The notes under the pieces were generated by a model, which worked only from the letters and a program-made list of their open reading frames with translations, did not search any database and was not told where the DNA came from. From an uncultured Spirochaetales bacterium (lineage in GTDB: Bacteria > Spirochaetota > Spirochaetia > SPDA01 > CAZSGZ01), in contig CAYTSI010000005.1 of NCBI GenBank assembly GCA_964440465.1, forward strand, positions 151 through 64,150: a stretch of DNA of 64,000 nucleotides. Direction: 5' to 3'. How positions within the stretch are numbered: position 1 is the stretch's first letter; the number at the start of each line of letters is the position of its first letter. The translations under genes and the position numbers were made by a program. Below are positions 4,370 to 58,476 of the stretch, in pieces.

Positions 4370-5815
4370 ATGCAGATAGATGAAAAAACGATACGGACGG
4401 TTGTCGAAGAGGTGTTAAAAGAGGTGAGCGCGGCGGCGGTGTCGTCCGCCTCGCCGCCCCGGACCCCTTCCCCGGCAGCCTCCTCTACATATCAGGGCTC
4501 ATTCAGTACCATGGACGCAGCCGTGCGCGCGGCGCATCAGGCGCATCTGGATTTAATGAACACGACGCTGGAAATACGGAGAAAAATGATCGATGCCATG
4601 CGGGAGACCATATGGTCCAATCTTTTTGTCCTGTCAAAAAAAGCGGTGGAGGAGACCGGCTTCGGCCGCACCGACGACAAGGTGAAGAAAAACCTTCTCG
4701 CGGCGAAGATGACACCCGGTGTGGAGGATTTAACGCCGACATCGTATACGGATGACCACGGACTTACCCTGACCGAACTCGCACCCTACGGCGTTATCGG
4801 GGCGATTGCTCCGAGTACGAACCCGACGGAGACGATTATCAGCAATGCCATTGGAATGGTAGCAGGCGGAAACACGGCGGTGTTTGGTCCCCACCCGGCC
4901 GCGAAGGAAGTTTCGAAATATACCATCTGCTTGTTAAACACGGCCATTCAGAAAGCCGGCGGACCGGCAAATGTTCTTACAACGGTGGACGAACCGACCA
5001 TCGAGGCCGCCCAGACGATGATGGACCATCCTCTCGTTTCGCTCTTAGTCGTGACCGGCGGCCCGGGAGTAGTAAAAGAGGCGATGAAACGGGCGAAAAA
5101 GGTCATTGCCGCGGGACCGGGGAACCCGCCGGTGGTGGTGGATGAAACCGCGGACATCGTGAAGGCCGGGAAAGATATCGTCGCGGGCGCGGGTTTGGAC
5201 AACAACATCATCTGTATTGACGAGAAAGAAGTCCTGGCGGTGGACTCTATTGCCGATCAGCTGAAGGCGGAAATGAAGAAAAACGGCGCCTTTGAACTGG
5301 ACCGGCAGCAGGCGGAGGCCCTGACGAAAATCGTCATTTCCGATCCCGGACGGCCGGGGCATGAAGGAATGGCGAATAAAAAATACGTGGGAAAAAACGC
5401 GTCCGTATTGGCGGACCTCATCGGCCTGAAGGTCCCCGAAGATACGCGCATCCTCATTGCCGAAGTCGACCGCGACCATCCGATGGTATGGACGGAACAG
5501 CTGATGCCCTTTATTCCGCTGGTGCGGATGAAGAGCGCCGATGAGGCGATCGATTTTGCCGTAGAATGCGAACACGGGTTTCGGCACACGGCAAGCATGC
5601 ATTCGAAAAACATCGAGCGGCTCTCAAGGATGGCGAAAGTCATGAACTGTTCCCTCTTTGTAAAAAACGGTTCGAATTTTAACGGCATGGCCTTCGGCGG
5701 CGCGGGCTACACCTCCTTTACCATTGCCAGTCCCACCGGCGACGGCTTTACCCGGGCGAGGACCTTTACCCGGGAACGGCGGTGTTCGCTCATTGATTAT
5801 TTTCGGATTGTGTAG
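4370..5815 (+). CDS. CoA-acylating aldehyde dehydrogenase (PduP/EutE family) with N-terminal encapsulation-peptide-like helix and P/S-rich linker
   Basis: 481 aa; ALDH fold motifs (VVTGGPGVVKEAMKRAKKVIAAGPGNPPVVVDETAD, NNIICIDEKEV); N-term MQIDEKTIRTVVEEVLKEV followed by AAAVSSASPPRTPSPAASS linker. Confidence 0.85.
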   Translation: MQIDEKTIRTVVEEVLKEVSAAAVSSASPPRTPSPAASSTYQGSFSTMDAAVRAAHQAHLDLMNTTLEIRRKMIDAMRETIWSNLFVLSKKAVEETGFGRTDDKVKKNLLAAKMTPGVEDLTPTSYTDDHGLTLTELAPYGVIGAIAPSTNPTETIISNAIGMVAGGNTAVFGPHPAAKEVSKYTICLLNTAIQKAGGPANVLTTVDEPTIEAAQTMMDHPLVSLLVVTGGPGVVKEAMKRAKKVIAAGPGNPPVVVDETADIVKAGKDIVAGAGLDNNIICIDEKEVLAVDSIADQLKAEMKKNGAFELDRQQAEALTKIVISDPGRPGHEGMANKKYVGKNASVLADLIGLKVPEDTRILIAEVDRDHPMVWTEQLMPFIPLVRMKSADEAIDFAVECEHGFRHTASMHSKNIERLSRMAKVMNCSLFVKNGSNFNGMAFGGAGYTSFTIASPTGDGFTRARTFTRERRCSLIDYFRIV

Positions 5816-11046: not shown

Positions 11047-12174
11047 ATGTTCCGTATGAACCGGTTTACGATGTGCGCGGCAGCCGACTTTCACCTCGGC
11101 ATGAGGTTCTCTTCCTACCCTTCTGTGCAAAAGGAGCTGATACGGGCGAGGTTTTCCGCGCTCCGGCGGGTGGTGGACCGGGCAAATGCCGAACAATGCG
11201 CTCTTCTTGTGATAGCGGGAGATTTGTTTGATCGTATCAACATCCCGGTAAAAGAAGCGGAGGAAGTGATAGAAATTCTCGGCGGATTTCAGGGTGATTG
11301 CATTGCGGTTTTACCGGGTAACCACGATTATTTCAGCGGTGCAAAGAGCGGTGTCTGGAAAACCGTTACGGAGAATGGACCGGATAACCTCCTGCTGCTG
11401 TCGGAGAAGAAAAAATACTACCTCAATGATTTCCATTTGCCGGTTGTTTTATATGCCGGCCCATGCAGTTCTCAGCACGGACGTGAAAACGCGGTATCGT
11501 GGATCGGCCCGGCGGACCGAAAGGACAGAGAATTGTTTCATATAGGGGTAGCCCACGGCAGCATTGAGGGGATTTCCCCCGACGTAACCAAGCAGTATTT
11601 CCCGATGAACAGGAAGCAGCTGGAGTCCGCCGGTCTCGATTTGTGGATTATCGGGCACACCCATATACCCTTCCCGGAGCGGGAGGAAACGGTATCGCCT
11701 TTTATTATACCCGGCACACCCGAACCGGACGGTTTTGATTCCGGCGGGGACGGAGCTGCTTGGATTATTTCGGTAAATGATAACAAGGCGGTACACAAGA
11801 AGCGGTTTACTGCCGGCTCATACCGTTTTACGCGGCAGATAAAGGAAATACACTCCGCCGGGGACATTGAGGAGGCGGTCCGTGAAATGAGCGGAACGGC
11901 CGGTCCTTCCGTTCTCCTGCAGCTGAAACTGCGGGGCACTCTTGTGAAGGGCGATTTTCCCCTTTTAGGTCCGGCAATGGAAGAATTGGCACAGCGGTTT
12001 TTTTATACGGATATTGATACGGAAAGCGTGAAAACAAAGCTGACCCCCGGAGAAATCGGCAATGAATTCCGGGAAGGGACCTTTCCCTATATTCTTCTTT
12101 CCCGTCTCTCCGAGTACGGCGATACCGAGGCGCTCGAGCGGGCTTACAGGATCCTAGAGGAGATGAGGAAATGA
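11047..12174 (+). CDS. sbcD: SbcD/Mre11-like calcineurin-family metallophosphoesterase (DNA repair exonuclease, YhaO-like)
   Basis: Phosphoesterase motifs AAADFHLG, VIAGDLFD, LPGNHD, GHTH; overlaps downstream ATPase gene by 4 bp. Confidence 0.7.
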   Translation: MFRMNRFTMCAAADFHLGMRFSSYPSVQKELIRARFSALRRVVDRANAEQCALLVIAGDLFDRINIPVKEAEEVIEILGGFQGDCIAVLPGNHDYFSGAKSGVWKTVTENGPDNLLLLSEKKKYYLNDFHLPVVLYAGPCSSQHGRENAVSWIGPADRKDRELFHIGVAHGSIEGISPDVTKQYFPMNRKQLESAGLDLWIIGHTHIPFPEREETVSPFIIPGTPEPDGFDSGGDGAAWIISVNDNKAVHKKRFTAGSYRFTRQIKEIHSAGDIEEAVREMSGTAGPSVLLQLKLRGTLVKGDFPLLGPAMEELAQRFFYTDIDTESVKTKLTPGEIGNEFREGTFPYILLSRLSEYGDTEALERAYRILEEMRK

Positions 12175-14651
12175 TCATCCGGGACCTGCACATTCATACC
12201 TTCGGGGACTTTCAGGATGTCCGGCTGCAGTTTGCAGACGGGTGTAATATTGTCCTTGGTGAAAATGAAGCGGGTAAGTCAACGGTTTTCAATGTAATCG
12301 ATCATCTGCTGTTTACTCCCGTCAAGCTGACGAAGCGTGAAATGGAAAAAAGCTTGAATCGATGGTTTCCCGTTGGAGGCGGGGATACGTTGAGCGCGGA
12401 ATTATCTGCCGAACTCGGGGACAGAGCTGTTCGGTACTTCAAGTGCTGGGGCGGGAATCCGGAAGGAACAATTCGATTTTCACCGGGAGGGACCTATTCG
12501 GGCGATGATGCCCTCGCTGCGGAAACGGAAAAATTGTGGGGATACTCTCCGGAGACGGTGCGGCAGGTTTGCCTGCTGCGGCAGAGTACCCTCGCGGATA
12601 CGCTGCCTTCCTACCAGAATTCGAAGGAGGTATTGCAGTCTCTTACCGACATCCTGCAAAATTCTTTAATAGAAGGCGGCGGTATTTCCACCTCCGGTTT
12701 TATTGAAACTCTCCGGGACCGGTACAGCTTGTTTTTTTCAAGATGGGACAGAGACCGGAACTATCCGGAAAAAAACAGAGGGATTGAAAATCCATGGTCG
12801 GTAAACGTGGGTACGGTTTTGAAATGGTGGTATGAAATGAAGCGGGCCGAGTTAGAGGTCCGGCGGGTAGAGCAGCTGGAAGACTCAATATGTTTACTGC
12901 AGAGCAGCCAAAAAGAAAAAAAGAAGGAAACGGCAGCTCTCGAGTCGTTTCTTTCTGCCTTTGAGACAGTCTACAACACTGCCGGAGACAGAAAAAGCCT
13001 GGAATTGGAACTGCGGGAAATTATCGGTACGATGGAGCGGATAAAGAAAGACAGTCAATCCTGGGGACGGGGGAGGGATGGTCTTGAACAGGCGCTCCGG
13101 GAGCGGAAAGAAGGGAACGAAGAACTTGGAAAGCTCCGCGGGCGGATCGAAAGCAGGGATGAAGTAACGGCGAAACGGAAACGGTTCGAAAAATATCGTC
13201 GGCTGCTGGAGGTGAAAACAAAACTCGACGCCCTGGAGGCAAAGCTCAGAGAACAGCCGGCAATACCGGAAAAGGATTTGCAGGCACTCCGTGAATCAAG
13301 GTTGGCAATTCGGGAAAGTGAGGTGAAACTGCAGTCCGGAACACTCTTTGCACAGCTGACCGCGAAGAAAAATATCAGTTTTTCCTATACTCCCGGATTG
13401 GGCACTGAAAAGCGGCGTGACCTTATGGCAGGGAATTCGCTTGAAATAACGGCGGAAGGGAAAATTCGGCTGAGCCACGAAGACTGGGAGCTGGATGTTT
13501 ATTCGGGAAACGAAGATTACGAAACCGTCAAAAAGGAGCTGGAGGCAGGCAAAAAAGAGTTTAACGCTCTCTGTGAGAAGTACGGTGTTGTTTCCGTCGA
13601 GGAAGGAGAAGCACAGCGGAAGGTTTATACTGATCTGGAAGGGGAAACGGCACGGGCGCGGAAACAATTTTCCGAGGAACGCGGAGAGGACTCTTTTGAA
13701 GCCCTGAAGAAGGAAGTCGAAAGTTTTGGGGCCCTTCCTGAGGAAACCGACAGTACCGAGCTGGGAAGAGAATACGGTTCTCTCAATGAACGGCTTGCCG
13801 CGCTTGAAAAAACAATACAGGAACATCGGGAACGGTTGTCGTATTTGGAAGAGACATATGGGACGGAGGAAAAGCTTCTGGACATGCTCGCGGACCTCCG
13901 CGGCCGGCAGCGGGACTTGGAGAAACAAGTGGCTGCTCTTCCGGAAATTCCTGACCCCTTCGAAACGGCGGAAGAATTTCTTGAGGCATACAGGGAAAAA
14001 CAAAGAAAAAGGGAGACGCTCCGTCAGGAAATATTTGAGTTAGATAAGGCGGCCGCCCTTGCGGTAAAAGACCTCCCGGACATCTCCCTCGAGGAGCTCG
14101 AAGCGGACGCTGAAGCCGCGCGGCGGCGTTTTCAATCCGCGCTTTCGGAGGGGGAGACAATCGGCCGGATTCTCGAGACAGCGCTGCGGATCCAAAAAGA
14201 AATTCAGGAGAACCCCTATACCGCCTTTATGGAGGCGGCGGAAGCAAACCTTAAAAAAATGACCGGGCAGAGGCTGCAGTATAAAAGCAGATCAGGCGGG
14301 GGGGACGGTCAGGCAGCGGCCCCTTTTCACGGTGATGTTAGAAACAGCCGGGGAGAAATTCTGGCGTACGGACAGCTTTCAGGCGGAACGAAAGACGCGG
14401 TTTCTCTAGCCGTCCGGCTGGCAATGGCGGAGTATTATCTGAAAAATAAAGCAGGGTTTCTCCTCTTTGATGATCCCCTAGTGGAAATGGACCCGCGGCG
14501 CCAGAAGGCCGCCGCCGAACTGCTTTCCGAAACCGCCCGGCGCTACCAGTCGATAATCTTTACCTGTCATCCCCACATGCGCGATTTATTCCCGAATGCC
14601 AATGTAATTGAGCTGCATCGGGACGGGGAACGGAGGCGTGTTAAATTTTAA
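12171..14651 (+). CDS. sbcC: SbcC/Rad50-like ABC ATPase with long coiled coil (YhaN-like)
   Basis: Walker A GENEAGKST near N-terminus, ~600 aa coiled-coil, C-terminal LSGGTKDAVSLA signature and LLFDDPLVEMD Walker B/D-loop. Confidence 0.75.
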   Translation: MIIRDLHIHTFGDFQDVRLQFADGCNIVLGENEAGKSTVFNVIDHLLFTPVKLTKREMEKSLNRWFPVGGGDTLSAELSAELGDRAVRYFKCWGGNPEGTIRFSPGGTYSGDDALAAETEKLWGYSPETVRQVCLLRQSTLADTLPSYQNSKEVLQSLTDILQNSLIEGGGISTSGFIETLRDRYSLFFSRWDRDRNYPEKNRGIENPWSVNVGTVLKWWYEMKRAELEVRRVEQLEDSICLLQSSQKEKKKETAALESFLSAFETVYNTAGDRKSLELELREIIGTMERIKKDSQSWGRGRDGLEQALRERKEGNEELGKLRGRIESRDEVTAKRKRFEKYRRLLEVKTKLDALEAKLREQPAIPEKDLQALRESRLAIRESEVKLQSGTLFAQLTAKKNISFSYTPGLGTEKRRDLMAGNSLEITAEGKIRLSHEDWELDVYSGNEDYETVKKELEAGKKEFNALCEKYGVVSVEEGEAQRKVYTDLEGETARARKQFSEERGEDSFEALKKEVESFGALPEETDSTELGREYGSLNERLAALEKTIQEHRERLSYLEETYGTEEKLLDMLADLRGRQRDLEKQVAALPEIPDPFETAEEFLEAYREKQRKRETLRQEIFELDKAAALAVKDLPDISLEELEADAEAARRRFQSALSEGETIGRILETALRIQKEIQENPYTAFMEAAEANLKKMTGQRLQYKSRSGGGDGQAAAPFHGDVRNSRGEILAYGQLSGGTKDAVSLAVRLAMAEYYLKNKAGFLLFDDPLVEMDPRRQKAAAELLSETARRYQSIIFTCHPHMRDLFPNANVIELHRDGERRRVKF

Positions 14652-14667: not shown

Positions 14668-15645
14668 TTATGAATCGAAGCTGTATTCCCCGCGCCATGA
14701 AACAATGTATTCCCAGACATTTCCCCGCGGCGGCCGTACCGATCCTCCTGTGCCGGGGTCGTACGTCCACGTTCCCGTAATCCCCTTTTCCGCGGCGGCG
14801 GCTTCGAAATGATACATTGCAATTCCCGTATCGATCCGCTGTAGGTCAATGTGCTTCCTGAAAAGCCCGTAAGCTCTGTCCCTTTGCAGAAAAAAATGCA
14901 CCAGGTTCTCCGCTTTCCCGCTGCCCCGGAAGGTGATTATCAGCCGCCATGGCTGCTTGTTTGATGCCGAGGGAGCAAGTCGCACGCATTCGAGAATGAT
15001 CTTTGTTTTTTCGGAAACTTCACTGGGTTGCAGAGGTTTGAGGGGGACAGAGCTGCAGGTAACGAAAAACAGTTTTTCCCACGGTTTCCGGCGTTTCGAT
15101 CCCGCGGCAAATCTGATGAAGCGTGCAGCCGGCCGCCTACGTTCCGCCGGATATCCCACAGGTGTTATTGCAGGGATAATTTCGTTGTCTGGAAGATTGA
15201 GGTATTCTGAAAGTTTCCCGCGCTGAAAAGTTCCCCCGAGCCAGCAGGTCCCGAGGCCGAGATTCGTCAACTGCAGGATAATATGTTCAAAGGTGTAGCC
15301 GAGGTCCGTCATTTTCTGAGGGACAGAGCTGCCTTTTGAGGAATTTTCTATGTTTCGCTTCCGATTTGCAGTGTCCGCCGCGACTGATTTTTCTGTAACT
15401 GTAACAATGCCCGCGGCAAAAAGGCGTGCCCCTCGTATAAAACCGTAAGTACCAAGTGAGCTCCGCCACTCCTCCGGCATACCGGATAGGTCAATCAGCG
15501 TAAACCGGATGCGCGATCCGAACGGCGGGACAGCACCGGGATGTACGATGAGTTTTTCAATTTTATTTACCAGTTCCGGTTCGCAATGCCGCCCAGAATA
15601 AGAGCGGATCGACCTTCTCCGAAGTATTGTATCGTGTATCGTCAT
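14668..15645 (-). CDS. Nitroreductase-family protein (start taken at MTIHDTILRRRSIRSY)
   Basis: N-terminal ILRRRSIRSY nitroreductase motif; larger than typical, may be tandem-domain. Track ORF extends to 15723. Confidence 0.6.
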   Translation of the reverse strand: MTIHDTILRRRSIRSYSGRHCEPELVNKIEKLIVHPGAVPPFGSRIRFTLIDLSGMPEEWRSSLGTYGFIRGARLFAAGIVTVTEKSVAADTANRKRNIENSSKGSSVPQKMTDLGYTFEHIILQLTNLGLGTCWLGGTFQRGKLSEYLNLPDNEIIPAITPVGYPAERRRPAARFIRFAAGSKRRKPWEKLFFVTCSSVPLKPLQPSEVSEKTKIILECVRLAPSASNKQPWRLIITFRGSGKAENLVHFFLQRDRAYGLFRKHIDLQRIDTGIAMYHFEAAAAEKGITGTWTYDPGTGGSVRPPRGNVWEYIVSWRGEYSFDS

Positions 15646-15836
15646 CGTCTCTTGTCGAGGGTAATTATATTCACAGGTAGGAGAATACTCTAATTGGGAG
15701 TCTACTTCTATGGGCGACCTCAAGTTTTCCCTTACTGGTCTGGAGATGTAAAGCGTTTAGGAAAATCAGCTACTTACTCTTAATGCTCCGTCCCTCATCA
15801 ACAGCACCGGTTATCGCTCACCGGTATTCGGCATTA

Positions 15837-16343
15837 TCAGCGTAACTTCATCCAAACCCGCCGCAGGAAATCATTAGGCGGCCGCTCTAATATGTCCAGC
15901 TGTCCCTTATAGATCAAACTCATGCCGCTGTATTTATAGTCTGTCGCGTATTGGACCATTTTGGCGCGAACTGGGTTATTGGCTATATAAACAAATGTGG
16001 CAAGATATTGCAGGAAACTGTGAATTATTTTGCTTTTAAACCGCTCGTTCCATACATGGCCGGTTAGCCCAAATGTTTTATTATACTGCATCGCGAAAAC
16101 GCTTAAAACCCATTGCATAATGGCCGATAAGCTCTCATTATTCAGCGGTTTTATGATGAAATGGTAATGGTTTCCCATTATACAGAAGTTTTTGATAGTG
16201 AAGCGGTATTTTTTTTTTGCCCTTCTGATGACTTCCATAAACATTTCTTGTATTTCCGGTGTTTTGAATATTACTTCTTTGCGGTTCACTCTGGAAACTA
16301 CGTGATAACTTGCCCCATACTGTAATTGCCTTGGTTTTCTCAT
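15837..16343 (-). CDS. IS200/IS605-family HUH Y1 transposase homolog, possibly a REP-associated tyrosine transposase (RAYT)
   Basis: 168 aa; HUH motif GNHYHFII; YHVVSRVNRKEVIF N-terminal motif; VWNERFKSKIIHSF...YIANNPVRAKMV C-terminal similarity to IS200 TnpA/RAYT. No obvious IS ends identified. Confidence 0.6.
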   Translation of the reverse strand: MRKPRQLQYGASYHVVSRVNRKEVIFKTPEIQEMFMEVIRRAKKKYRFTIKNFCIMGNHYHFIIKPLNNESLSAIMQWVLSVFAMQYNKTFGLTGHVWNERFKSKIIHSFLQYLATFVYIANNPVRAKMVQYATDYKYSGMSLIYKGQLDILERPPNDFLRRVWMKLR

Positions 16344-16464
16344 TCTTTACCCCCTCGAATAGTCGGTATTTTTTTTTGCCTATACTTAATAAGAAGGGGT
16401 AAATAGGATTGCTGATTTTAAAATTCGGTCATTTTTTTTATTTTTTTTGCTCTGTCCCCATCTT

Positions 16465-17661
16465 TTAGCTTTTTAACCGCTTGAGAAGTTCCCGGGCGAC
16501 AGCTGTCTCAACTTTATCCTCTGTCCCTAGCCCGCATACAGTACGGACCATGTGTTCATGTCCGTTTGCGGCCAGTTCTTCAGCGAACTGCTTGTCCCCT
16601 GGGAAAAGAATGCCGTTTTCGTCGGATCCGCGGAATGCAAACCCGGCGGCGGCTGCCTCGGCAATTGCGCTATAGGGAAGCCCGTGGGTTTCGGCTAAAA
16701 GCATTGCTCCGACCAGCCTATCGTCTTTGGCAAGTTTCCGTTGAAGGTCCCGGCCGACCCGGAAAATGGTATCACCCAATGCTTTATTTCGGAACCTGTT
16801 TAGAAGGTCGCCAATGTGTTCTCGGAGCGCGTCCAGAGAGAGATCGGCCGGGTACGCGGCGTGAAGGGCTTCTCCTGACTGTTCCATTGCTTTTTGTACT
16901 TTATCCTTAATTTCCGGAAGCTCAAGGGGTTCCCAGATGTAGGTAAACCCGGGTTCCTTACGATATCCGATATACGCCGCCGCCGCGTGACCCATATTAT
17001 GAATGAACAGTTTCCTGTCTACGTAGGCGGTTATATTTTCCACTGCTTTTATCTCGGGGAAATCCGGCACTTCTCGGACAAATCCGTGTTTATCAAGGAT
17101 AAGCGTATTGTATTCTTCCGAGAATACCCACAGTGGATCTTCGTTTTTGTCTTCCTCCCGCATAATCGGTACCATTTTCCCAATACTCGTTTCAACCAGG
17201 CCCACTGTTTTCTGAATGGGGAAGCCGGGAGGTAGATATTTCTGCAGTTCCCTTCTAAAAAAAGCAGCTCCGTCCCTCATATTTTCAGCAATAATGATGT
17301 CGATTTTTGCCGCTTCCGTCCGCATTTTTATCCCTTCGGCAATAACGGGGATTATATGCGGTAAGACCCCCTTCCCAACAGACGTGGCAATGTACGCCGC
17401 TTTGGAAATTTCTTCCGCTACTGCAGCTCTGTCCCTGCCGTCGACGGCTCGGACACCGGTAACGAAGACCTCTTCATCTTCCTGATTGTTCCGTTTAATA
17501 ATGACACGATAGGAGTTCCTGCTGTTCAACTCCCGTATCAGCGTTTCATCAATATCGACAAAGACAACCTCATAACCGTTGCCTGCAAACACCTTCCCGA
17601 TAAATGATCTGCCGATATTTCCGGCACCGAACTGCACTAGTTTTTTCTGTTTTTCCTGCAT
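16465..17661 (-). CDS. mtlD: Mannitol-1-phosphate 5-dehydrogenase
   Basis: KLVQFGAGNIGRSFIG N-terminal Rossmann motif and overall collinearity with E. coli MtlD (~380 aa). Confidence 0.8.
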   Translation of the reverse strand: MQEKQKKLVQFGAGNIGRSFIGKVFAGNGYEVVFVDIDETLIRELNSRNSYRVIIKRNNQEDEEVFVTGVRAVDGRDRAAVAEEISKAAYIATSVGKGVLPHIIPVIAEGIKMRTEAAKIDIIIAENMRDGAAFFRRELQKYLPPGFPIQKTVGLVETSIGKMVPIMREEDKNEDPLWVFSEEYNTLILDKHGFVREVPDFPEIKAVENITAYVDRKLFIHNMGHAAAAYIGYRKEPGFTYIWEPLELPEIKDKVQKAMEQSGEALHAAYPADLSLDALREHIGDLLNRFRNKALGDTIFRVGRDLQRKLAKDDRLVGAMLLAETHGLPYSAIAEAAAAGFAFRGSDENGILFPGDKQFAEELAANGHEHMVRTVCGLGTEDKVETAVARELLKRLKS

Positions 17662-17748
17662 ACCCTATTATAAAGTGTTCGTGTACTCCGATACAAGCCG
17701 AGCGGGAGAGCCTGTCCTTGCCTCCGAAGGCCTTCAGTGCTCTGTCCC

Positions 17749-17774
17749 CGGAATTGCCGGAATTGCGGAATTGA
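17749..17774. repeat. 9-bp tandem repeat CGGAATTGC x ~3 in divergent promoter region between mtlD and kinase gene
   Basis: cggaattgc cggaattgc ggaattga, 20 bp upstream of ATG 17795. Confidence 0.5.
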
Positions 17775-17794
17775 ACTGTCTGCCATTGCACTAG

Positions 17795-18769
17795 ATGATC
17801 ATATTTGAAATACTAAAGAAAAGTGAGGCTGATGTGAAACCAGTAATAACTGCATATGGCGAGGCCCTGTGGGACCTTCTGCCGGAAGGCCCGGTCTTAG
17901 GCGGGGCATTGCTGAATTTTACCTACCGGGCAAAGAGCTTAGGCGCTGACGCGGAATGTATCAGCAGGCTCGGTATGGACGATTTGGGGGACAGAGCTGC
18001 CGGAAAAATGAACGACTTGGGGTTTGATATGAATTATATTCAGAGGGACAGTGCTCACTCTACCGGGACGGTCCCAGTCAGTTTTGATGAACAGAAAAAT
18101 CCCAGCTATGTCATTACCCCGGAGGTTGCGTTTGATTTTATTGAAGACACGGAAAATCTTGAGGCCAGAATACAACAATCCGACTGCCTCTGCTTCGGGA
18201 GCCTTATTCAGCGCGCTCCGGTTTCGCGGGAAACCCTCTACAAACTGATCGAGCAATTCGGGGGCAGGTACCTGCTTTTCGATATCAATTTACGAAAAGA
18301 CTGTTATTCCTCCAAAACGGTGCGCACGTCCCTGGAAAAATGTCATATTGCGAAGCTCAATGAGGACGAACTGCATGAGCTTAAAGAATTAATTGGAATT
18401 TCCGGGAATTCAGTCCGGAAACTGACGCAATCCTGTGTTGAAACCTACGGTTTGACCTATTGTCTCGTAACTTTAGGAGACAAGGGGCTTTTTGCCGCGG
18501 CTGATTCGGGGACAGAGGTGTATGTTCCGGGTATTGTCGTCGACCTTGTCGACCCGATTGGTGCCGGGGACGCCTGTACGGCAGGGTTTATTTTTTCTCT
18601 CCTGCAGGACAGTCCTCTCGATTACGCGTGCAAATATGCCAATGCAATCGGTGCGGCGGTCGCGGAAACTTCCGGGGCCACCGGTTTTGTATCGAAAGAG
18701 CGGATCGAAGCGGTCCTCCGCGGTGGGGACTATTCGGAGCCTCATCCAGAATTTCGGAGGAAGTACTGA
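17795..18769 (+). CDS. PfkB-family carbohydrate kinase (fructokinase/ribokinase-like)
   Basis: C-terminal DPIGAGDACTAGF anion-hole/GAGD motif; ~320 aa. Confidence 0.75.
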   Translation: MIIFEILKKSEADVKPVITAYGEALWDLLPEGPVLGGALLNFTYRAKSLGADAECISRLGMDDLGDRAAGKMNDLGFDMNYIQRDSAHSTGTVPVSFDEQKNPSYVITPEVAFDFIEDTENLEARIQQSDCLCFGSLIQRAPVSRETLYKLIEQFGGRYLLFDINLRKDCYSSKTVRTSLEKCHIAKLNEDELHELKELIGISGNSVRKLTQSCVETYGLTYCLVTLGDKGLFAAADSGTEVYVPGIVVDLVDPIGAGDACTAGFIFSLLQDSPLDYACKYANAIGAAVAETSGATGFVSKERIEAVLRGGDYSEPHPEFRRKY

Positions 18770-18822
18770 ACTTTTAGTTGATTTTTTTGCGCTTTACTAT
18801 TATTATATCTCGAAACAACTAA

Positions 18823-19008
<186 letters not shown>

Positions 19009-19050
19009 CACTTTTACGTAAGCAGTGTTAAGCTGCATTTTGTATGAAAG

Positions 19051-19090
19051 CTGCTGCCGGCCGTTGGTGCCGACGGCAGCTTTTTGTTTG
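19051..19090 (+). terminator. Rho-independent terminator after ferredoxin gene
   Basis: gctgccg...cggcagc stem followed by tttttgtttg. Confidence 0.6.
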
Positions 19091-19120
19091 CCCGGCGAAG
19101 CCGGCAAACCTGCCGCGGTG

Positions 19121-19173
19121 GGGACAGAGCATGCCGATCGATGCCTAATTAATTCGTTGACAGGGGACAGAGC
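19121..19173 (+). repeat. Two same-strand copies of GGGACAGAGC 43 bp apart in intergenic region
   Basis: 19121-19130 and 19164-19173, between ferredoxin terminator and secreted-protein gene. Confidence 0.7.
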
Positions 19174-19203: not shown

Positions 19204-19875
19204 GTGAAAAAAATACTAAGTGCTCTCGTGTTGTTGTTCTTTTGCCGCGTTTTTCCTGTTTTTTCCTTCAATCCGGAGGAACTGAACACAATTACCTTTC
19301 ATAATAATACAGGTTACGATATTTACTATATTTTCCTCTCCCCGGGAGACAGCGACTTTTGGGGGCCGGAGGTGCTCGGGGCCGACCGCGTCCTTGGCGC
19401 CGGGGAAAGCCTGGGGTTTTATATTCATTACCCCGATTTTTCGAACACTTTCGATATTATGGCCATCGATGACGACGGGTATACCTTTATTCTGTGGGAC
19501 TATGAAGTCTCCGACGATGCTCCGGCGGAACTGACTTTCGATTTTGAAGACCTTTTGGACGATCCTCCGGACCTGGAGTTTATTACACTCAATGTAACAA
19601 ATGAAACGGTGCCGGTTTATCTTCTTTTCGTATCTCCCGAAGATTCAAACATGTGGGGTGTCGATTTGCTGGATGAATATACCATTTTAGAATCGGAAAA
19701 ATCCTTCAGTGTTCTCGTTCCGGTGGGTGGGACTACAACAACCTACAACGTTCTGGCGGTGGACGAGGACATGGATGAATACATCTTTGATATTCACCTC
19801 AACACCCGCTATGCCGATTCCGAAGGGACCATGTACGAGGCCGTTACCCTGGATGATTTGGTTACCGGCTACTGA
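19204..19875 (+). CDS. Secreted protein with signal peptide and internal two-fold repeat, unknown function (GTG start)
   Basis: MKKILSALVLLFFCRVFPVFS signal; two similar ~85-aa acidic repeats; AAGGAG RBS. Confidence 0.5.
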   Translation: MKKILSALVLLFFCRVFPVFSFNPEELNTITFHNNTGYDIYYIFLSPGDSDFWGPEVLGADRVLGAGESLGFYIHYPDFSNTFDIMAIDDDGYTFILWDYEVSDDAPAELTFDFEDLLDDPPDLEFITLNVTNETVPVYLLFVSPEDSNMWGVDLLDEYTILESEKSFSVLVPVGGTTTTYNVLAVDEDMDEYIFDIHLNTRYADSEGTMYEAVTLDDLVTGY

Positions 19876-56229: not shown

Positions 56230-58476
56230 TTGAAAAGAAACGGTAACTATATACCGGTAATTGTCGCGGGAATAATTATTTTCCTGTTTGTTACCGGAGA
56301 AATTACACTGCGGCATCTCCCCTTTCCCGAACTTGAGGCGTTTCAGAACAGGGCGTACAGTACAATAGTAACCGACAGAAACGGCACAATTCTCAGAATT
56401 CTTCCTCTCGAAGGAGGATTGAGGCGGGAATACGTTCCCCTCGAAGAACTGCGCCCGGAGATTGTCCGGATTTTTATCGAAAGCGAAGACAAGCGGTTCT
56501 CTTTTCACCGCGGTGTGGACGGTTTTGCCGTGCTGCGCGGTTTTTTTCAAAACAGACGAGCGGGACGGACGGTTTCGGGGGCGTCCACCATCTCCATGCA
56601 GCTGGCGGGTCTTGTCCGCCCGCGAAAGCAGACCGTCGGGGGCAAGGTCCTTGAAGCCTGGGACGCCCTTCGCCTGGAGGCAAAACTCTCGAAACGGGAA
56701 ATCCTCGAGCTGTGGCTAAACTCTCTCCCCTTCGGCAGGCAGGCGGAGGGTGTCGGGAGCGGCAGCAGGGCCTACTTCAATATATCCGCCGCGGACCTCT
56801 CAATTCCGGAGGCGGCCCTTCTTGCCGTTGTTCCGAGGCATCCGAAAAAGTACAGCCCCGTCGACAATCCAGAGGGCGCGTATGAAGGCGCGCTCCGCAA
56901 TGCCGGGAGGCTTCGTACGGACATTTCCGCACAGGAGCTGCGGAAGGCCGCCCGGGCCGCGGAGCCGGGAAATTTTATCTACCACGCGCCCCATTTTCTT
57001 CGTCAAATAGGGACAGAGCTCGGCGGCAAGCAGGGCGGCAGGGTAACAACCACATTGGATCTGGAACTTCAGCAGCATTTTCACCGTCTTTTGTCCACCT
57101 ATCAGCAGCGGTACGCCCAAAGCCGCATTACCAGCGCCGCCGGAATGCTCATCGACAATCATACGGGCGAAGTCCTTGCCTACGTCGGTTCACTCGACTT
57201 TTTCTCCGGCAGAGCGGGGGAGCAGCTGGACGGGGTAACCGTCCCGCGGCAGCCCGGGTCCTGTCTTAAACCCTTTCTTTACGCGGCGGCGCTGGAGGAC
57301 GGGTGGTATCCGAACACACTGCTTCCCGACGTCCCGCTCAATTTCGGCGGGGGCGAGGTATATGTGCCTTCGAATTTCACAAATTCTTTTTCCGGTCCCG
57401 TCAGGCTTCGGGTTGCCCTCGGGTCGTCTCTGAACGTACCGGCGGTCTATCTGTTGGATGAGATCGGGTTGGAACGGTTCGGGGAGCTGCTGCGGGCGGC
57501 GGGTTTTCACGTCGGAGCGGGCGCGCTTGAGAAGGCGGGCCTCGGCGCCGCGTTGGGCAATCTGGATGTCTCCCTCCTGGAACTGACCCGGGGCTTCGCC
57601 CTTTTCCCCCGGCGTGGTGTGCCCCTGGAGCTTTCATGGACACTCCCCGAAGTTTTCGAAGGGCCCTCCCCCGCGGGACGGGCCGTTTCCGAATACACCG
57701 CCGATATTATCTGCGACATCCTCTCGGACCCGGCGGCGAGGGCCCGGGGGTTCGGGTACAATTCCGCTTTTACCCTTCCCTTTCCCGCCATGTTTAAAAC
57801 CGGGACAACCGATCAGTTTCAGCACATCTGGGCCCTTGCCGCGACGCCGGATTATACCGTGGGCATATGGATGGGAAACAACACCGGGGAAACGGTAATC
57901 GGCCGGACCGGTTCCTCCGTCCCCGCGCGGATAGCGGCTGAAGTGCTTACCTTCGCGCGGAAGGGGAGGGCGGAATTCCCGGTCCCGGCGGGGGCGGTGC
58001 CGGTGGAGATCTGCACAGTATCCGGGCAGCGGGGGACGGAGCTCTGTCCCTCCGTTGTTACCGAATACCTGCCGGCGGCCGGCGGGGAAGGGGCTGTACC
58101 CGGTCCCTGTACATTTCATATACTGCGAAACGGTACGGTAACAACCGAGTATCCGGAAAAATATCATGCATGGCTGCGGGAGCTGGGCCGGTCGGGGGGA
58201 TTTTCCTTCTCCGGCGGAGAAGGCCTTGAAATTATTCACCCCCGCGGCGGAGCGGTATTTTACTATGACCCGACAGTTTCCGCCGGAGTCCAGGCGCTGC
58301 GGGTCGAGGCAGCTGCCGGCAGGCCCGGGGCCTGCACACTCTATGTAAACGGCGAAAGGGCGGGTACTGTTTTCCATCCCCCCTATGTATGGTTTTTGCC
58401 GCTTCAGCGGGGAGCGTGGGAATTGACCGTATCGAATACCGGTTCCGAGGCGACGGTGCGCGTCGAAGTCCGCTAA
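56230..58476 (+). CDS. pbpC: Penicillin-binding protein 1C (GT51 transglycosylase + transpeptidase + C-terminal domain), TTG start
   Basis: EDKRFSFHRGVD and GASTISMQLA GT51 motifs; transpeptidase domain; co-localised with alpha-2-macroglobulin as in many bacteria. Confidence 0.8.
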   Translation: MKRNGNYIPVIVAGIIIFLFVTGEITLRHLPFPELEAFQNRAYSTIVTDRNGTILRILPLEGGLRREYVPLEELRPEIVRIFIESEDKRFSFHRGVDGFAVLRGFFQNRRAGRTVSGASTISMQLAGLVRPRKQTVGGKVLEAWDALRLEAKLSKREILELWLNSLPFGRQAEGVGSGSRAYFNISAADLSIPEAALLAVVPRHPKKYSPVDNPEGAYEGALRNAGRLRTDISAQELRKAARAAEPGNFIYHAPHFLRQIGTELGGKQGGRVTTTLDLELQQHFHRLLSTYQQRYAQSRITSAAGMLIDNHTGEVLAYVGSLDFFSGRAGEQLDGVTVPRQPGSCLKPFLYAAALEDGWYPNTLLPDVPLNFGGGEVYVPSNFTNSFSGPVRLRVALGSSLNVPAVYLLDEIGLERFGELLRAAGFHVGAGALEKAGLGAALGNLDVSLLELTRGFALFPRRGVPLELSWTLPEVFEGPSPAGRAVSEYTADIICDILSDPAARARGFGYNSAFTLPFPAMFKTGTTDQFQHIWALAATPDYTVGIWMGNNTGETVIGRTGSSVPARIAAEVLTFARKGRAEFPVPAGAVPVEICTVSGQRGTELCPSVVTEYLPAAGGEGAVPGPCTFHILRNGTVTTEYPEKYHAWLRELGRSGGFSFSGGEGLEIIHPRGGAVFYYDPTVSAGVQALRVEAAAGRPGACTLYVNGERAGTVFHPPYVWFLPLQRGAWELTVSNTGSEATVRVEVR
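58033..58050. repeat. Palindromic head-to-head pair of the over-represented motif (GGGACgGAGC|TCTGTCCC)
   Basis: gggacggagctctgtccc inside pbpC coding sequence. Confidence 0.6.

Follow-up and report, generated by a model that had tools for sequence, protein, structure and literature searches.

The gene at positions 15837-16343 (minus strand) of the 64-kb stretch of DNA analysed here (the window) is tied to a short, non-palindromic word that is strongly over-represented around it. Our main reading, to which we assign a probability of roughly 0.6, is that the gene encodes a domesticated, cis-acting single-stranded DNA nuclease of the RAYT class of Y1 HUH enzymes and that the 12-mer R-GGGAC-R-GAG-S-H is its cognate site. 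The word belongs to the gene unit: among more than 140 family genes from Spirochaetota, about 70-90% have a sense-strand copy 50-130 nt upstream, compared with 7% of other ORFs. Around the gene, copies of the matching dialect accumulate within about 5-10 kb, in coding as well as non-coding DNA. The gene and the part of its product that co-varies with the word are the following.

15837..16343, minus strand: predicted RAYT-class (TnpA_REP-like) Y1 HUH nuclease gene, 168 aa, assigned by family, motif and structure matches
Residues 99-103 of the 168-aa protein: N-E-R-F-K, the segment that co-varies with the word

The ORF is intact, and the sole domain of its product is Y1_Tnp (Pfam PF01797, E=2e-15). 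The HUH motif is built up by H59-Y60-H61, and the catalytic tyrosine is Y119, located within YIANNP. These residues are invariant in 36 of 36 homologues. With the HUH motif, a single catalytic tyrosine and the Y1_Tnp fold, the protein belongs to the Y1 HUH superfamily, as an earlier note on this DNA had claimed from the HYH motif. It is RAYT-like rather than IS200-like, again in line with that note. The score against the NCBIfam model REP_Tyr_transpos (NF047646) is a marginal pass (80.2 bits, cut-off 80), and the score against transpos_IS200 (NF033573) is 32.7 bits and lies below the cut-off of 55. The top PDB profile match is entry 4ER8, TnpA_REP from E. coli (E=6e-10); ISDra2 TnpA was matched with E=0.28. 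A Foldseek comparison of an AF2 model (pLDDT 91.7) resulted in a TM-score of 0.71-0.73 and an rmsd of 3.1 for 4ER8, and in a TM-score of ~0.5 and an rmsd of ~7 for the TnpA proteins of IS200, IS608 and ISDra2. TnpA_REP is the closest solved relative. The tyrosine motif is of the class-2 type Y---NP (Y119-I-A-N-N123-P124), and the Y---Q motif of IS200/IS605 TnpA (subclass 1.1) is absent. A second protein search for relatives outside Spirochaetota returned Spirochaetota only.

The gene also shows the low copy number, divergent paralogs and vertical inheritance that are characteristic of RAYTs. The identical protein was found in a single genomic context only. In related species, the gene occupies the same syntenic position with 80% and 89% protein identity, and synteny of the neighbouring genes extends over three species. 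Paralogs that share a MAG show 47-92% identity (none at or above 95%), and the homology between them comprises the ORF and at most 90 nt upstream of it. The ordinary IS200 that the earlier note had set up as the contrary case, with identical copies and defined IS ends, is therefore not what is found.

We consider it very unlikely that the gene represents an IS200/IS605-type element, ordinary or in decay, that inserted 3' of an abundant, pre-existing target word, with the local word density mirroring a bias towards regions rich in the word. Elements of the IS200/IS605 family insert in a fixed orientation on the 3' side of a short target, which adjoins their left end (PMC6006769), and such an element would account for the constant upstream same-strand copy of the word, which recalls this left-end target. 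The superfamily and the fold core are shared as well, there are several paralogs per genome, and in the closest paralog pair (L037/L042) the homology begins at the word. However, the tyrosine motif, the model score and the fold point to TnpA_REP, no within-genome copies exceed 92% identity, and the gene is syntenic across species, so that the locus departs from IS200/IS605 TnpA in motif and score, in lacking hairpin ends, in copy identity and in mobility. The gene has neither subterminal hairpins nor a conserved right end, the 3' flank diverging even among orthologues; the spacer between word and gene varies and is poorly conserved. Flanking copies persist in word-poor genomes, and an insertion preference would leave the co-variation between dialect and residue 99 (see below) unexplained.

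The flanks themselves, 15724-15836 and 16344-16464, in which the earlier note had suggested looking for conserved hairpins, fold like shuffled sequences (z from -0.30 to +0.55). A repeat search found no terminal inverted repeats above chance; it returned the word itself, a chance-level 9-nt inverted pair and a stem pairing with the ribosome-binding site, and nothing else. No Rfam match was obtained in the flanks, and a scan of them found neither a consensus sigma-70 promoter nor a terminator. The description of the gene as being without recognisable IS ends thus holds for both flanks. The following elements were identified in the 5' region.

16344..16447, minus strand: 5' region between word and ATG, with an A8-T-A8 tract, a conserved box and an inverted repeat
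16411-16419, minus strand: conserved box AAAATCAGC
16346-16356 and 16393-16403, minus strand: inverted repeat, able to pair with the GAGGGGG ribosome-binding site

A box TTGAAGCA/AATCAG is located 34-37 nt ahead of the ATG in most family members. A promoter is presumably contained in 16344..16447, where the consensus sigma-70 scan was empty.

The core GGGACAGAGC occurs 22 times in the window compared with an expectation of 0.13, and none of 100 shuffles reached 22 copies. The consensus is a sharply defined 12-mer and is not palindromic. A stretch of 4.3 kb around the gene holds nine of the 22 copies (scan statistic P ~0.001; 0.002-0.04 at other window sizes), and the density within 1 kb of the gene is 3.3-3.75 per kb versus 0.72 per kb window-wide. 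To the left of the gene there are GGGACAGAGC at 14873, 15044 and 15320 and the variant GGGACGGAGC at 15785; to its right there are GGGACAGAGC at 16449, 17426, 17739, 17988, 19121 and 19164 and the variant GGGACAGAGG at 16518. In terms of the surrounding genes these copies, together with one further out, are distributed as follows.

16448..16459, minus strand: gene-proximal word, 12-mer GGGGACAGAGCA, in the same orientation as the gene
16518..16527, minus strand: second upstream copy (variant), in the 3' end of the mannitol dehydrogenase gene, encoding GTED
15785..15794, minus strand: downstream copy (variant), 43 nt past the stop codon, direct and not inverted
14873..15329: three copies in a TM1586-type nitroreductase gene, at 14873 (minus), 15044 (plus) and 15320 (plus), encoding QRDRAY, CSSVPL and GSSVPQ
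17426..19173, mixed strands: five copies on the opposite side of the gene, namely
17426, minus strand: within the mannitol dehydrogenase gene
17739, minus strand: intergenic
17988, plus strand: within a PfkB kinase gene
19121 and 19164, plus strand: intergenic
12418..12427, plus strand: outermost copy of the local cluster, within an SbcC-like ATPase gene

The core of the gene-proximal word begins 115 nt upstream of the ATG, and the word starts a few bases past the stop codon of the mannitol dehydrogenase gene. Its position is conserved at the orthologous loci L007 (AGGGACAGAGCA) and L004 (AGGGACGGAGCA), each in its own dialect. The downstream copy at 15785..15794 follows a weak 6-bp ACCGGT stem, which is not significant, and is not conserved in L004 or L007. 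Within the window, 18 of the 22 GGGACAGAGC copies are located in ORFs, 10 of them in sense and 8 in antisense orientation, and in different frames. These counts bear out the picture drawn in the earlier note, in which clustered copies of a non-palindromic, mostly intragenic repeat flank the gene on both sides. The information content of the word ends at -1 and +1, and its flanks are neither conserved nor complementary; a longer element hidden around the word was rejected on these grounds. Clustering of words with one another was also rejected as a sufficient explanation for the local cloud (0.5-1.0 per kb for words far from the gene versus 3.3-3.75 per kb near it).

The association extends across the family. 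Our word scans cover family-bearing genomes and loci, and the comparison is with other ORFs in these. A sense-strand copy was found within 260 nt upstream in 71 of 82 loci. Between -250 and -30, a sense-strand word is present at 49/67 family ORFs compared with 58/789 other ORFs, and an antisense word at 3/67 compared with 55/789. The result was replicated in independent metagenome loci, 44 of 63 of which carry the sense-strand upstream word; most of the remaining ones bear variant arrays such as GGGACAGTGC. This upstream sense-strand copy, which is located ahead of the promoter region, is the only constant element of the family loci. In the first kb downstream, 64 same-strand and 52 opposite-strand copies were counted, i.e. 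there is no preferred orientation.

With growing distance from the gene the word density takes values of 2.61, 1.16, 0.78, 0.59, 0.38, 0.23 and 0.22 per kb, a roughly 10-fold drop over 5-7 kb. The density is higher near the gene than far from it in 17 loci and lower in 3 (Wilcoxon p=5e-4), and in coding DNA alone it decreases from 1.64 to 0.2 per kb. The word-poor loci L055, L015 and L078 retain the flanking copies and almost no others. The absence of any association between gene position and word density, which the earlier note had named as evidence against its idea, is contradicted by the upstream counts, their replication and the decay from 2.6 to 0.2 per kb. The unusual relationship between a RAYT and a non-palindromic, intragenic word that it had suspected is supported and proves to be general across the family.

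One could argue that the word is a host signal serving other machinery, such as a DNA-uptake sequence, a Chi-like site or a nucleoid-protein site, and that RAYT-like genes only bear a copy of it, e.g. as an operator. We regard this as unlikely. The word does resemble USS and DUS: it is short, is found in both orientations and all frames, has far more perfect than one-off copies and forms species dialects. Dense word patches without a nearby family gene are also present at 33-37 kb and 42-43.3 kb of the window, where tblastn found no family-gene remnants and the genes are ordinary. Furthermore, the upstream copy shows a helical phasing of ~11 bp (raw p=2.5e-7; p ~0.01-0.04 after collapsing related sequences). 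This phasing, which is a hint only, suggests duplex binding near the promoter, as expected for an operator, and fits a regulator better than a single-stranded DNA enzyme. On the other hand, the density decays away from family genes, word-poor loci keep the gene-flanking copies only, and the upstream word is present at just 7% of other ORFs. A single genome-wide reader also predicts one dialect per genome, whereas one 945-kb contig contains two dialect neighbourhoods, and the dialect co-varies with a residue aligned to a DNA-contacting residue of TnpA_REP.

The dialect of the upstream copy follows the protein tree, and from it the dialect of the other copies at a locus can be predicted (48/72, 212/261 and 50/64). 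Proteins with Y99 have G at word position 6 in 78 cases and A in none; for proteins without Y99, A is found in 37 cases and G in 8. From the sequence comparison this pattern appears to involve few independent switches (at least three), and residue 99 is a candidate specificity residue. Residues 99, 100 and 103 align with Q95, P96 and W99 of TnpA_REP, and R101 aligns with R97; in TnpA_REP, these residues contact or sequester guide nucleotides (PMC3479197). The co-variation at word positions -1, 8, 10 and +1 is diffuse. Residue 100 (E/C) was considered as a determinant of position 8 (A/T) and rejected, as it is contradicted by P0188 (E100, T8) and P0190 (C100, A8). Loci L004 and L088 are exceptions to the residue-99 rule and combine N99 with G6.

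P0188 and P0190 are two paralogs on one 945-kb contig, each located in a neighbourhood of its own dialect. For both, the longest contig is given as 945,500 nt, and 672,032 + 273,358 is close to that value. Around P0188, GGGACAGTGC occurs 11 times and GGGACAGAGC twice; around P0190 the counts are 0 and 18 (Fisher p=9e-7). L107 is the only locus with two gene copies, and both share one dialect. Dialect contrasts within MAGs were also seen in JAFGDJ and JAFGRV, and chimeric bins could explain some of these.

It is quite improbable, in our view, that the gene was imported together with a segment of several kb from a donor of the respective dialect, in which case cloud and dialect match would be inherited and not made in place. 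The GC content of the gene (0.40) and of its 5' flank (0.32) is indeed lower than that of the window (0.52), the block of mannitol dehydrogenase and RAYT-like genes is 82% identical between L001 and L007 compared with 89-93% in its flanks, and dialect neighbourhoods differ inside one genome. However, the neighbours are syntenic in three species, and those bearing words are ordinary metabolic genes of normal GC content. At 17 of 20 informative loci the gradient has the gene at its centre and extends to both sides, so that imports would always have to be gene-centred. Moreover, a switch of dialect in place is seen at orthologous word sites. An example is the site in the PfkB gene, whose orthologous counterpart in L004 is a GGGACGGAGC copy.

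Alignments also bear on how intragenic copies arise. The words in the nitroreductase gene differ from the L004 ortholog by substitutions, with no gap at the words, and at the mannitol dehydrogenase word site, too, the difference from L004 is a substitution. An origin by insertion was rejected because the alignable sites show substitutions and no gaps; for these sites, the intragenic copies appear to come from substitution. A codon or peptide origin of the word was rejected as well, since all six frames and both orientations are occupied. Perfect copies far outnumber those with one mismatch. A comparison of L001 and L007 gave no significant sign of purifying selection on word sites (8/13 versus 43% background, p=0.15).

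The tie between protein and short word is of a previously undescribed type and constitutes a variant of the RAYT/REP and TIRYT/TIR systems. In common with RAYT/TnpA_REP systems (REPtrons) are the domesticated protein of the Y1 HUH type carrying Y---NP, the few divergent paralogs, the flanking of the gene by the over-represented repeat of the genome and the co-variation of the repeat variant with the protein, for which RAYT/REP co-evolution is a precedent (PMC8266576). REP/REPIN hairpins with a conserved 5' tetranucleotide foot were not found; the flanks fold like shuffles. In contrast to REPs, the repeat described here is a 12-nt non-palindromic word without a hairpin that is largely intragenic and occupies six frames, new copies arise by substitution and not by insertion, a gradient of ~5-10 kb surrounds each gene, and the constant copy is the upstream sense-strand one only.

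Di Nocera et al. (2013, PMC3733652) described TIRYTs, RAYT-like genes without REPs that are flanked by short repeats with GGGGWSAS (TIRtrons); in some genomes these repeats form moderately abundant families, often as dimers or clusters. The upstream copy GGGGACAG and the A-dialect copies fit this motif, whereas the G-dialect GGGGACGG departs from it at one position. TIRtrons have inverted repeats on both sides. The copies at 16449 and 15785 (both on the minus strand), by contrast, are direct, and the family has no preferred downstream orientation; massive intragenic spread, gradients and co-variation of a residue with the dialect have not been described for TIRtrons. Quentin (2018, PMC6006769) equates TIRYT with subclass 2.1, which has a median length of 238 aa, a C-terminal HTH-like domain and the motifs YIELNP / Y[IV]HLNP, whereas the protein studied here has 168 aa, no C-terminal HTH and YIANNP. 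Subclass 2.4 (Bertels RAYT group 4) is characterized by NH[IFV]H, WQ and YIxNNP and by 'long double foot' REPs, often inserted in the gene (PMC6006769). In the present family YIxNNP was observed, together with NH[YIVF]H, a W followed by Y/G/N and not Q, and no such REPs.

Outside the HUH enzymes, the Ssn GIY-YIG single-stranded DNA nucleases with NTS/SRM repeats offer a parallel in logic, not in descent: the nuclease gene is spatially tied to its own repeated target, and this logic of a gene next to its motif has been validated for Ssn/NTS (PMC11893778). Their nuclease is of the GIY-YIG and not of the HUH type, and their repeats are hairpins of ~30 bp. The USS of Pasteurellaceae and the DUS of Neisseriaceae resemble the word in being non-palindromic, 10-12 nt long, over-represented at least 100-fold and present in both orientations and all frames, with copies gained by substitution in coding regions and with species-level dialects. 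They differ in that the dialects described here vary between neighbourhoods of one genome, matching the local RAYT-like paralog, and in that the density is centred on RAYT-like genes. We know of no link between the R-GGGAC-R-GAG-S-H word and competence.

Based on these observations we propose the following mechanism for the RAYT-class nuclease. The protein would bind the word on single-stranded DNA and probably nick and rejoin it. Recognition would involve the W-x-x-R-F-x segment, the predicted counterpart of the 5' GTAG guide contact in E. coli TnpA_REP. The enzyme would act mainly in cis, close to its site of synthesis, and its activity, or selection dependent on this activity, would favour sequence changes by which perfect words are generated or preserved. 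The outcome would be a private word cloud around each paralog and a sparser background in the genome as a whole. A role in autoregulation is also probable for the upstream copy or copies.

We infer that the enzyme itself may disseminate the word. To our knowledge, no HUH/Y1 reaction yields base substitutions. Known RAYTs require a hairpin, and there is none at this gene. The strongest form of the proposal, in which each RAYT-class paralog writes or maintains a private 12-nt word within 5-10 kb by cis-acting base substitution, unrelated coding genes included, is accordingly put forward as a tentative one, to which we give somewhat less than even odds.

RAYTs are widespread domesticated transposases of unclear function. 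A literature search for the word returned unrelated eukaryotic matches only, and no paper on such words in spirochaetes was found. Repeat-free RAYT groups have been reported from flanking 16-mers (Bertels 2017) or from searches for REP-like secondary structure (Quentin 2018, PMC6006769). A 12-nt word without a hairpin would escape both screens, as these need 16-mers or secondary structure. If paralogs do write their words by substitution, RAYT groups called repeat-free may thus have short words that were missed. A possible yield is programmable, single-stranded-DNA-recognising HUH tags, which could have a 12-nt specificity. If the enzyme causes the enrichment, this would be a third route to genome-wide over-representation of a short word, beside uptake bias and transposition, and a rare imprint of the sequence preference of a protein on neighbouring coding DNA. 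Should the tentative substitution proposal be true, it would amount to a protein-specified molecular drive on sequence, distinct from both REP/REPIN transposition and USS/DUS uptake bias.

The gene within the densest word cluster of the window encodes a protein of the RAYT class, in line with the earlier note, which had proposed a Y1 HUH transposase homolog with an HYH motif:

15837-16343, minus strand: RAYT-like HUH gene, 168 aa (Pfam Y1_Tnp, NCBIfam REP_Tyr_transpos)

The protein matches Y1_Tnp with E = 2e-15 and barely passes REP_Tyr_transpos (80.2, curated cut-off 80), and it does not satisfy the IS200 model (32.7, cut-off 55). The HUH motif is His59-Tyr60-His61 and the catalytic tyrosine is Tyr119 within YIANNP, both invariant in an alignment of 36 homologues. 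The tyrosine motif has the form Y---NP, by which TnpA_Y1 class 2 (RAYT-like) is recognised, whereas IS200 has Y---Q (Quentin et al. 2018, PMC6006769). A profile search with the family, i.e. this protein and its relatives, gave E = 6e-10 for the structure of E. coli TnpA_REP (4ER8), as against 0.28 for ISDra2 TnpA. A superposition of the AlphaFold model (pLDDT 91.7) with 4ER8 resulted in a TM of 0.71-0.73 and an rmsd of 3.1 Å, compared to a TM of ~0.5 for the transposases of IS200, IS608 and ISDra2.

The window originates from an uncultured spirochaete of microbial mat metagenomes, and an identical protein was found in one genomic context only. A scan of one genome per species yielded 291 relatives, the best 80 of which are nearly all from Spirochaetota MAGs, several of them multi-copy; a metagenome scan yielded at least 470. 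Family members with a spirochaete-type word nearby also occur in a Candidatus Margulisiibacteriota MAG (JBAZXJ01; loci L068 and L076) and a Lokiarchaeota MAG (protein P0012), which could reflect mis-binning or horizontal transfer of gene and word. One 5.4-kb contig (L107) carries two family genes 3.5 kb apart (1129-1629 and 4598-5098), which share orientation and dialect, as we call a word variant favoured by a locus or clade.

Orthologues in the loci L004 (80% protein identity) and L007 (89%, closest species) both occupy the same position, directly 3' of a mannitol dehydrogenase gene, and most of the region is syntenic. In the window and in L004 the next gene is a TM1586-type nitroreductase, whereas window positions 14668-15836 cannot be aligned with L007 10508-11885, which holds only shorter ORFs. 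The mannitol dehydrogenase/RAYT block is more diverged between window and L007 (82%) than its surroundings (89-93%), and the GC content of the gene is 0.40 compared to 0.52 over the window. An SbcD/SbcC-like nuclease-ATPase pair (assigned by Pfam families) lies at 11047-14651, beyond the nitroreductase gene and about 1.2 kb from the RAYT-like gene; locus L005 also holds homologues of this pair, further away.

No recognisable IS ends were found, as the earlier note had stated. Neither flank (15724-15836, 16344-16464) outdoes shuffled sequence in folding; the two contain no terminal repeats besides the word itself and match no Rfam family. One inverted repeat recalls the RBS-occluding stem of IS200, but the stem sequences of L004 and L007 differ from it:

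16346-16356 / 16393-16403: inverted repeat, 11 nt, 91% complementary, 36 nt between arms; can pair with the GAGGGGG RBS

Paralogs inside one MAG are 47-92% identical, their homology is limited to the ORF plus no more than 90 nt of upstream sequence, and no recent duplicates are apparent among them. The family consists of domesticated RAYT-class genes and is not an active insertion sequence.

The word GGGACAGAGC is the commonest 10-mer of the window, with 22 copies compared to 0.13 expected from dinucleotide-preserving shuffles. As noted earlier it is mostly intragenic: 18 of the 22 copies lie within ORFs, in various frames, with 10 in sense and 8 in antisense direction. We built a consensus from 916 distinct instances in the window and 160 related loci. 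Its information content ends exactly one base beyond the 10-mer on each side: a purine stands at -1 (C or T in 0-3%), G is almost absent at +1 (2-3%), and no conservation or complementarity was found beyond these bases. By this consensus the unit is a 12-mer, R-GGGAC-R-GAG-S-H, and non-palindromic. It comes in the dialects GGGACAGAGC, GGGACGGAGC, GGGACGGAGG and GGGACAGAGG; some clades add GGGACAGTGC and GGGACAGGGC. Perfect copies of GGGACAGAGC number 145 compared to 0-4 for most single-mismatch variants, which are common solely where they are alternative dialects. Within coding regions every one of the six reading frames holds copies. Those of GGGACAGAGC divide into 111 sense, 77 antisense and 68 intergenic ones, and the density of the word per kb is 3-5 times higher in intergenic than in coding DNA. 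Extreme saturation was seen in locus L033 (JAOABY010000002.1), whose 16.8 kb hold 40 twelve-mers (one per 420 bp), 33 of them inside ORFs and with a strand bias of 28:12. This is denser than the uptake signal sequence (USS) of Haemophilus, at roughly one per 1.2 kb.

Intragenic copies arose by substitution where orthologous sequence could be aligned: they differ from it in single bases and the alignment is ungapped at the word. At two orthologous sites, in a PfkB gene and upstream of the RAYT-like gene, GGGACAGAGC of the window corresponds to GGGACGGAGC of L004, a locus with 8 copies of its own dialect and 0 of the window's. Between window and L007, word sites are not conserved significantly above background.

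Of 82 loci, 71 have a sense-strand copy no more than 260 nt ahead of the start codon; three of the 11 exceptions have almost no upstream sequence, and most others have a variant or antisense copy. With a stricter pattern, a sense copy at -250 to -30 was found for 49/67 family ORFs versus 58/789 other ORFs of the same loci, and an antisense copy for 3/67 versus 55/789. In an independent metagenome set 44 of 63 genes have the upstream sense copy, and most others have arrays of GGGACAGTGC or similar. Otherwise nearly word-free loci (L055, L015, L078) keep their gene-adjacent copies, so the word is more than a widespread host sequence that the gene happens to adjoin. In the window and its two orthologues upstream conservation starts at the word: the upstream copy belongs to the gene unit. 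The family ORFs themselves (L007-L086) are nearly word-free (3 copies in 43 kb), though they lie in the densest zone.

Between word and ATG, a variable A/T-rich spacer leads to a box that is conserved as TTGAAGCA or AATCAG at 34-37 nt from the ATG. We read this region as a putative promoter; a scan of the window with a simple promoter consensus did not call it. Word-to-ATG distances in 124 loci cluster at about 51, 63, 73, 85, 96 and 110-117 nt, a period of ~11 bp (raw p = 2.5e-7; ~0.01-0.04 once related sequences are collapsed). Tandem arrays lie upstream with 23-36 nt spacing in L025, L034 and L078 and downstream in L062 and L077. A pair in the window has a counterpart at similar spacing in L004 (6500 and 6542):

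19121-19173: two same-strand GGGACAGAGC copies, 43 nt apart, intergenic, before the ORF at 19204

The dense cluster described earlier comprises nine GGGACAGAGC copies in the 4.3 kb holding the gene (14873-19173; scan statistic P ~0.001). Word density falls with distance from the gene across the family.

Word density by distance from the gene, 23 loci with full 10 kb on either side
0-0.4 kb: 2.61 per kb
0.4-1 kb: 1.16 per kb
1-2 kb: 0.78 per kb
2-3 kb: 0.59 per kb
3-5 kb: 0.38 per kb
5-7 kb: 0.23 per kb
7-9.9 kb: 0.22 per kb

Words are denser at 0.4-3 kb than at 5-9.9 kb in 17 loci, with the reverse in 3 (Wilcoxon p = 5e-4), and coding DNA alone shows a like decay (1.64 to ~0.2 per kb). All sequences come from MAGs or metagenome contigs, and co-occurrence was scanned solely in genomes that carry the family. 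The window has 3.3-3.75 words per kb within 1 kb of the gene and 0.5-1.0 per kb around gene-distant words; its cluster is therefore one instance of the general pattern. Dense patches without a family gene occur at 33-37 kb and 42-43.3 kb. A second dialect family is far over-represented in the window (GGGACGGAG, 19 copies) and may be the mark of another paralog elsewhere in the genome. Its copies lie mostly away from the RAYT-like gene:

13860, 28330, 30335, 34575, 36382, 39296, 42411, 43125, 54152, 57914: GGGACGGAGG, ten copies
7145, 11747, 25224, 36026, 58033: GGGACGGAGC, five of seven copies in the window

Within 4 kb of the gene are 1/10 GGGACGGAGG versus 10/22 GGGACAGAGC copies. At 58033-58050, in a PBP1-type gene, two overlapping copies, which run in opposite directions and differ in dialect, form the near-palindrome GGGACGGAGCTCTGTCCC, the sole such juxtaposition in the window.

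The family proteins P0188 (165 aa) and P0190 (172 aa) are paralogs of one genome: the longest contig given for each measures exactly 945,500 nt, and a second assembly from the same sample series places them on two contigs (672,032 and 273,358 nt) that add up to 945,390 nt.

Upstream copies of two paralogs, and copies more than 400 nt away within ±10 kb
P0188: upstream AGGGACAGTGCT (two); GGGACAGTGC 11, GGGACAGAGC 2
P0190: upstream GGGGACAGAGCT; GGGACAGTGC 0, GGGACAGAGC 18

The two neighbourhoods differ in dialect (Fisher p = 9e-7), with copies in coding as well as intergenic DNA. Paralog neighbourhoods also differ in the MAGs JAFGDJ (19:0 versus 0:12) and JAFGRV (5:0 versus 1:9), for both of which chimeric binning is possible. 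A single genome-wide reader of the word, e.g. an uptake receptor, does not predict such private neighbourhoods, whereas they are expected of a protein that works chiefly in the vicinity of its gene.

The dialect of the upstream copy tracks the protein tree and predicts which dialect the locus shows beyond 400 nt (48/72, 212/261, 50/64 and 8/10). Its cleanest correlate in the protein is residue 99, which follows a conserved tryptophan.

Residue 99 and position 6 of the upstream word
Tyr: G 78, A 0
Not Tyr (G, N, A, R, S, H): G 8, A 37

At least three independent switches were observed: in a large G99 clade, in L161 (R99 nested among Y99) and in the window's clade (N99/A99). Residues 100 and 103 rank high as well. 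In a profile alignment to 4ER8, residues 99, 100, 101 and 103 correspond to Gln95, Pro96, Arg97 and Trp99 of TnpA_REP, in which Gln95 and Trp99 wedge between and sequester the 5' GTAG guide nucleotides and Arg97 makes a base-specific contact (PMC3479197). The co-varying positions are thus those expected to touch DNA; given the common descent of the sequences and two exceptions (L004, L088), this is suggestive rather than conclusive.

The closest known kind is the RAYT/REP system (REPtrons): there too a domesticated protein of this class is flanked by, and co-evolves with, the repeat of its genome. However, the hairpin repeat that defines REPtrons is absent here, and location and mode of origin of the repeat differ. 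TIRtrons are RAYT-like genes between inverted repeats sharing GGGGWSAS (Di Nocera et al. 2013, PMC3733652). This motif fits GGGGACAG of the window, so an ancient origin of the word core within this branch is probable, but the inverted-repeat arrangement is not found in the family. Nor does the window's protein resemble the long HTH-bearing protein with which Quentin et al. equated TIRYTs (PMC6006769); by its motifs it looks more like subclass 2.4. USS/DUS share the word-like behaviour and lack the gene-centred, paralog-specific distribution. Ssn/NTS is a precedent for inferring a cognate ssDNA nuclease from gene-motif adjacency, but with a different fold and hairpin repeats (PMC11893778).

Based on these results we consider gene and word to be functionally coupled, with a probability of about 0.85. 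We also lean, less firmly, towards the protein itself reading the word and causing the local enrichment. It would recognise the 12-mer, most likely on ssDNA, through the W-x-x-R-F-x segment and act preferentially in cis, and its action, or selection depending on it, would favour perfect words. Y1 HUH enzymes cut and rejoin DNA; they are not known to change bases. Possible routes are that nicking at near-cognate sites provokes repair or recombination, that near-cognate sites are cut yet poorly resealed and selected against, or that word-rich DNA linked to the gene gains a selfish advantage. The upstream copy or copies may double as an operator.

Earlier screens for RAYT repeats employed flanking 16-mers (Bertels 2017) or REP-like secondary structures (Quentin 2018, PMC6006769), both of which a 12-nt non-hairpin word would have escaped. 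Every part of the observation in the earlier note held up, and the unusual RAYT-repeat relationship suspected from the window is supported by the constant upstream copy, the local clouds and the dialect matching. It is new in form: a short, non-palindromic, largely intragenic cognate word, with a paralog-specific cloud for each gene.
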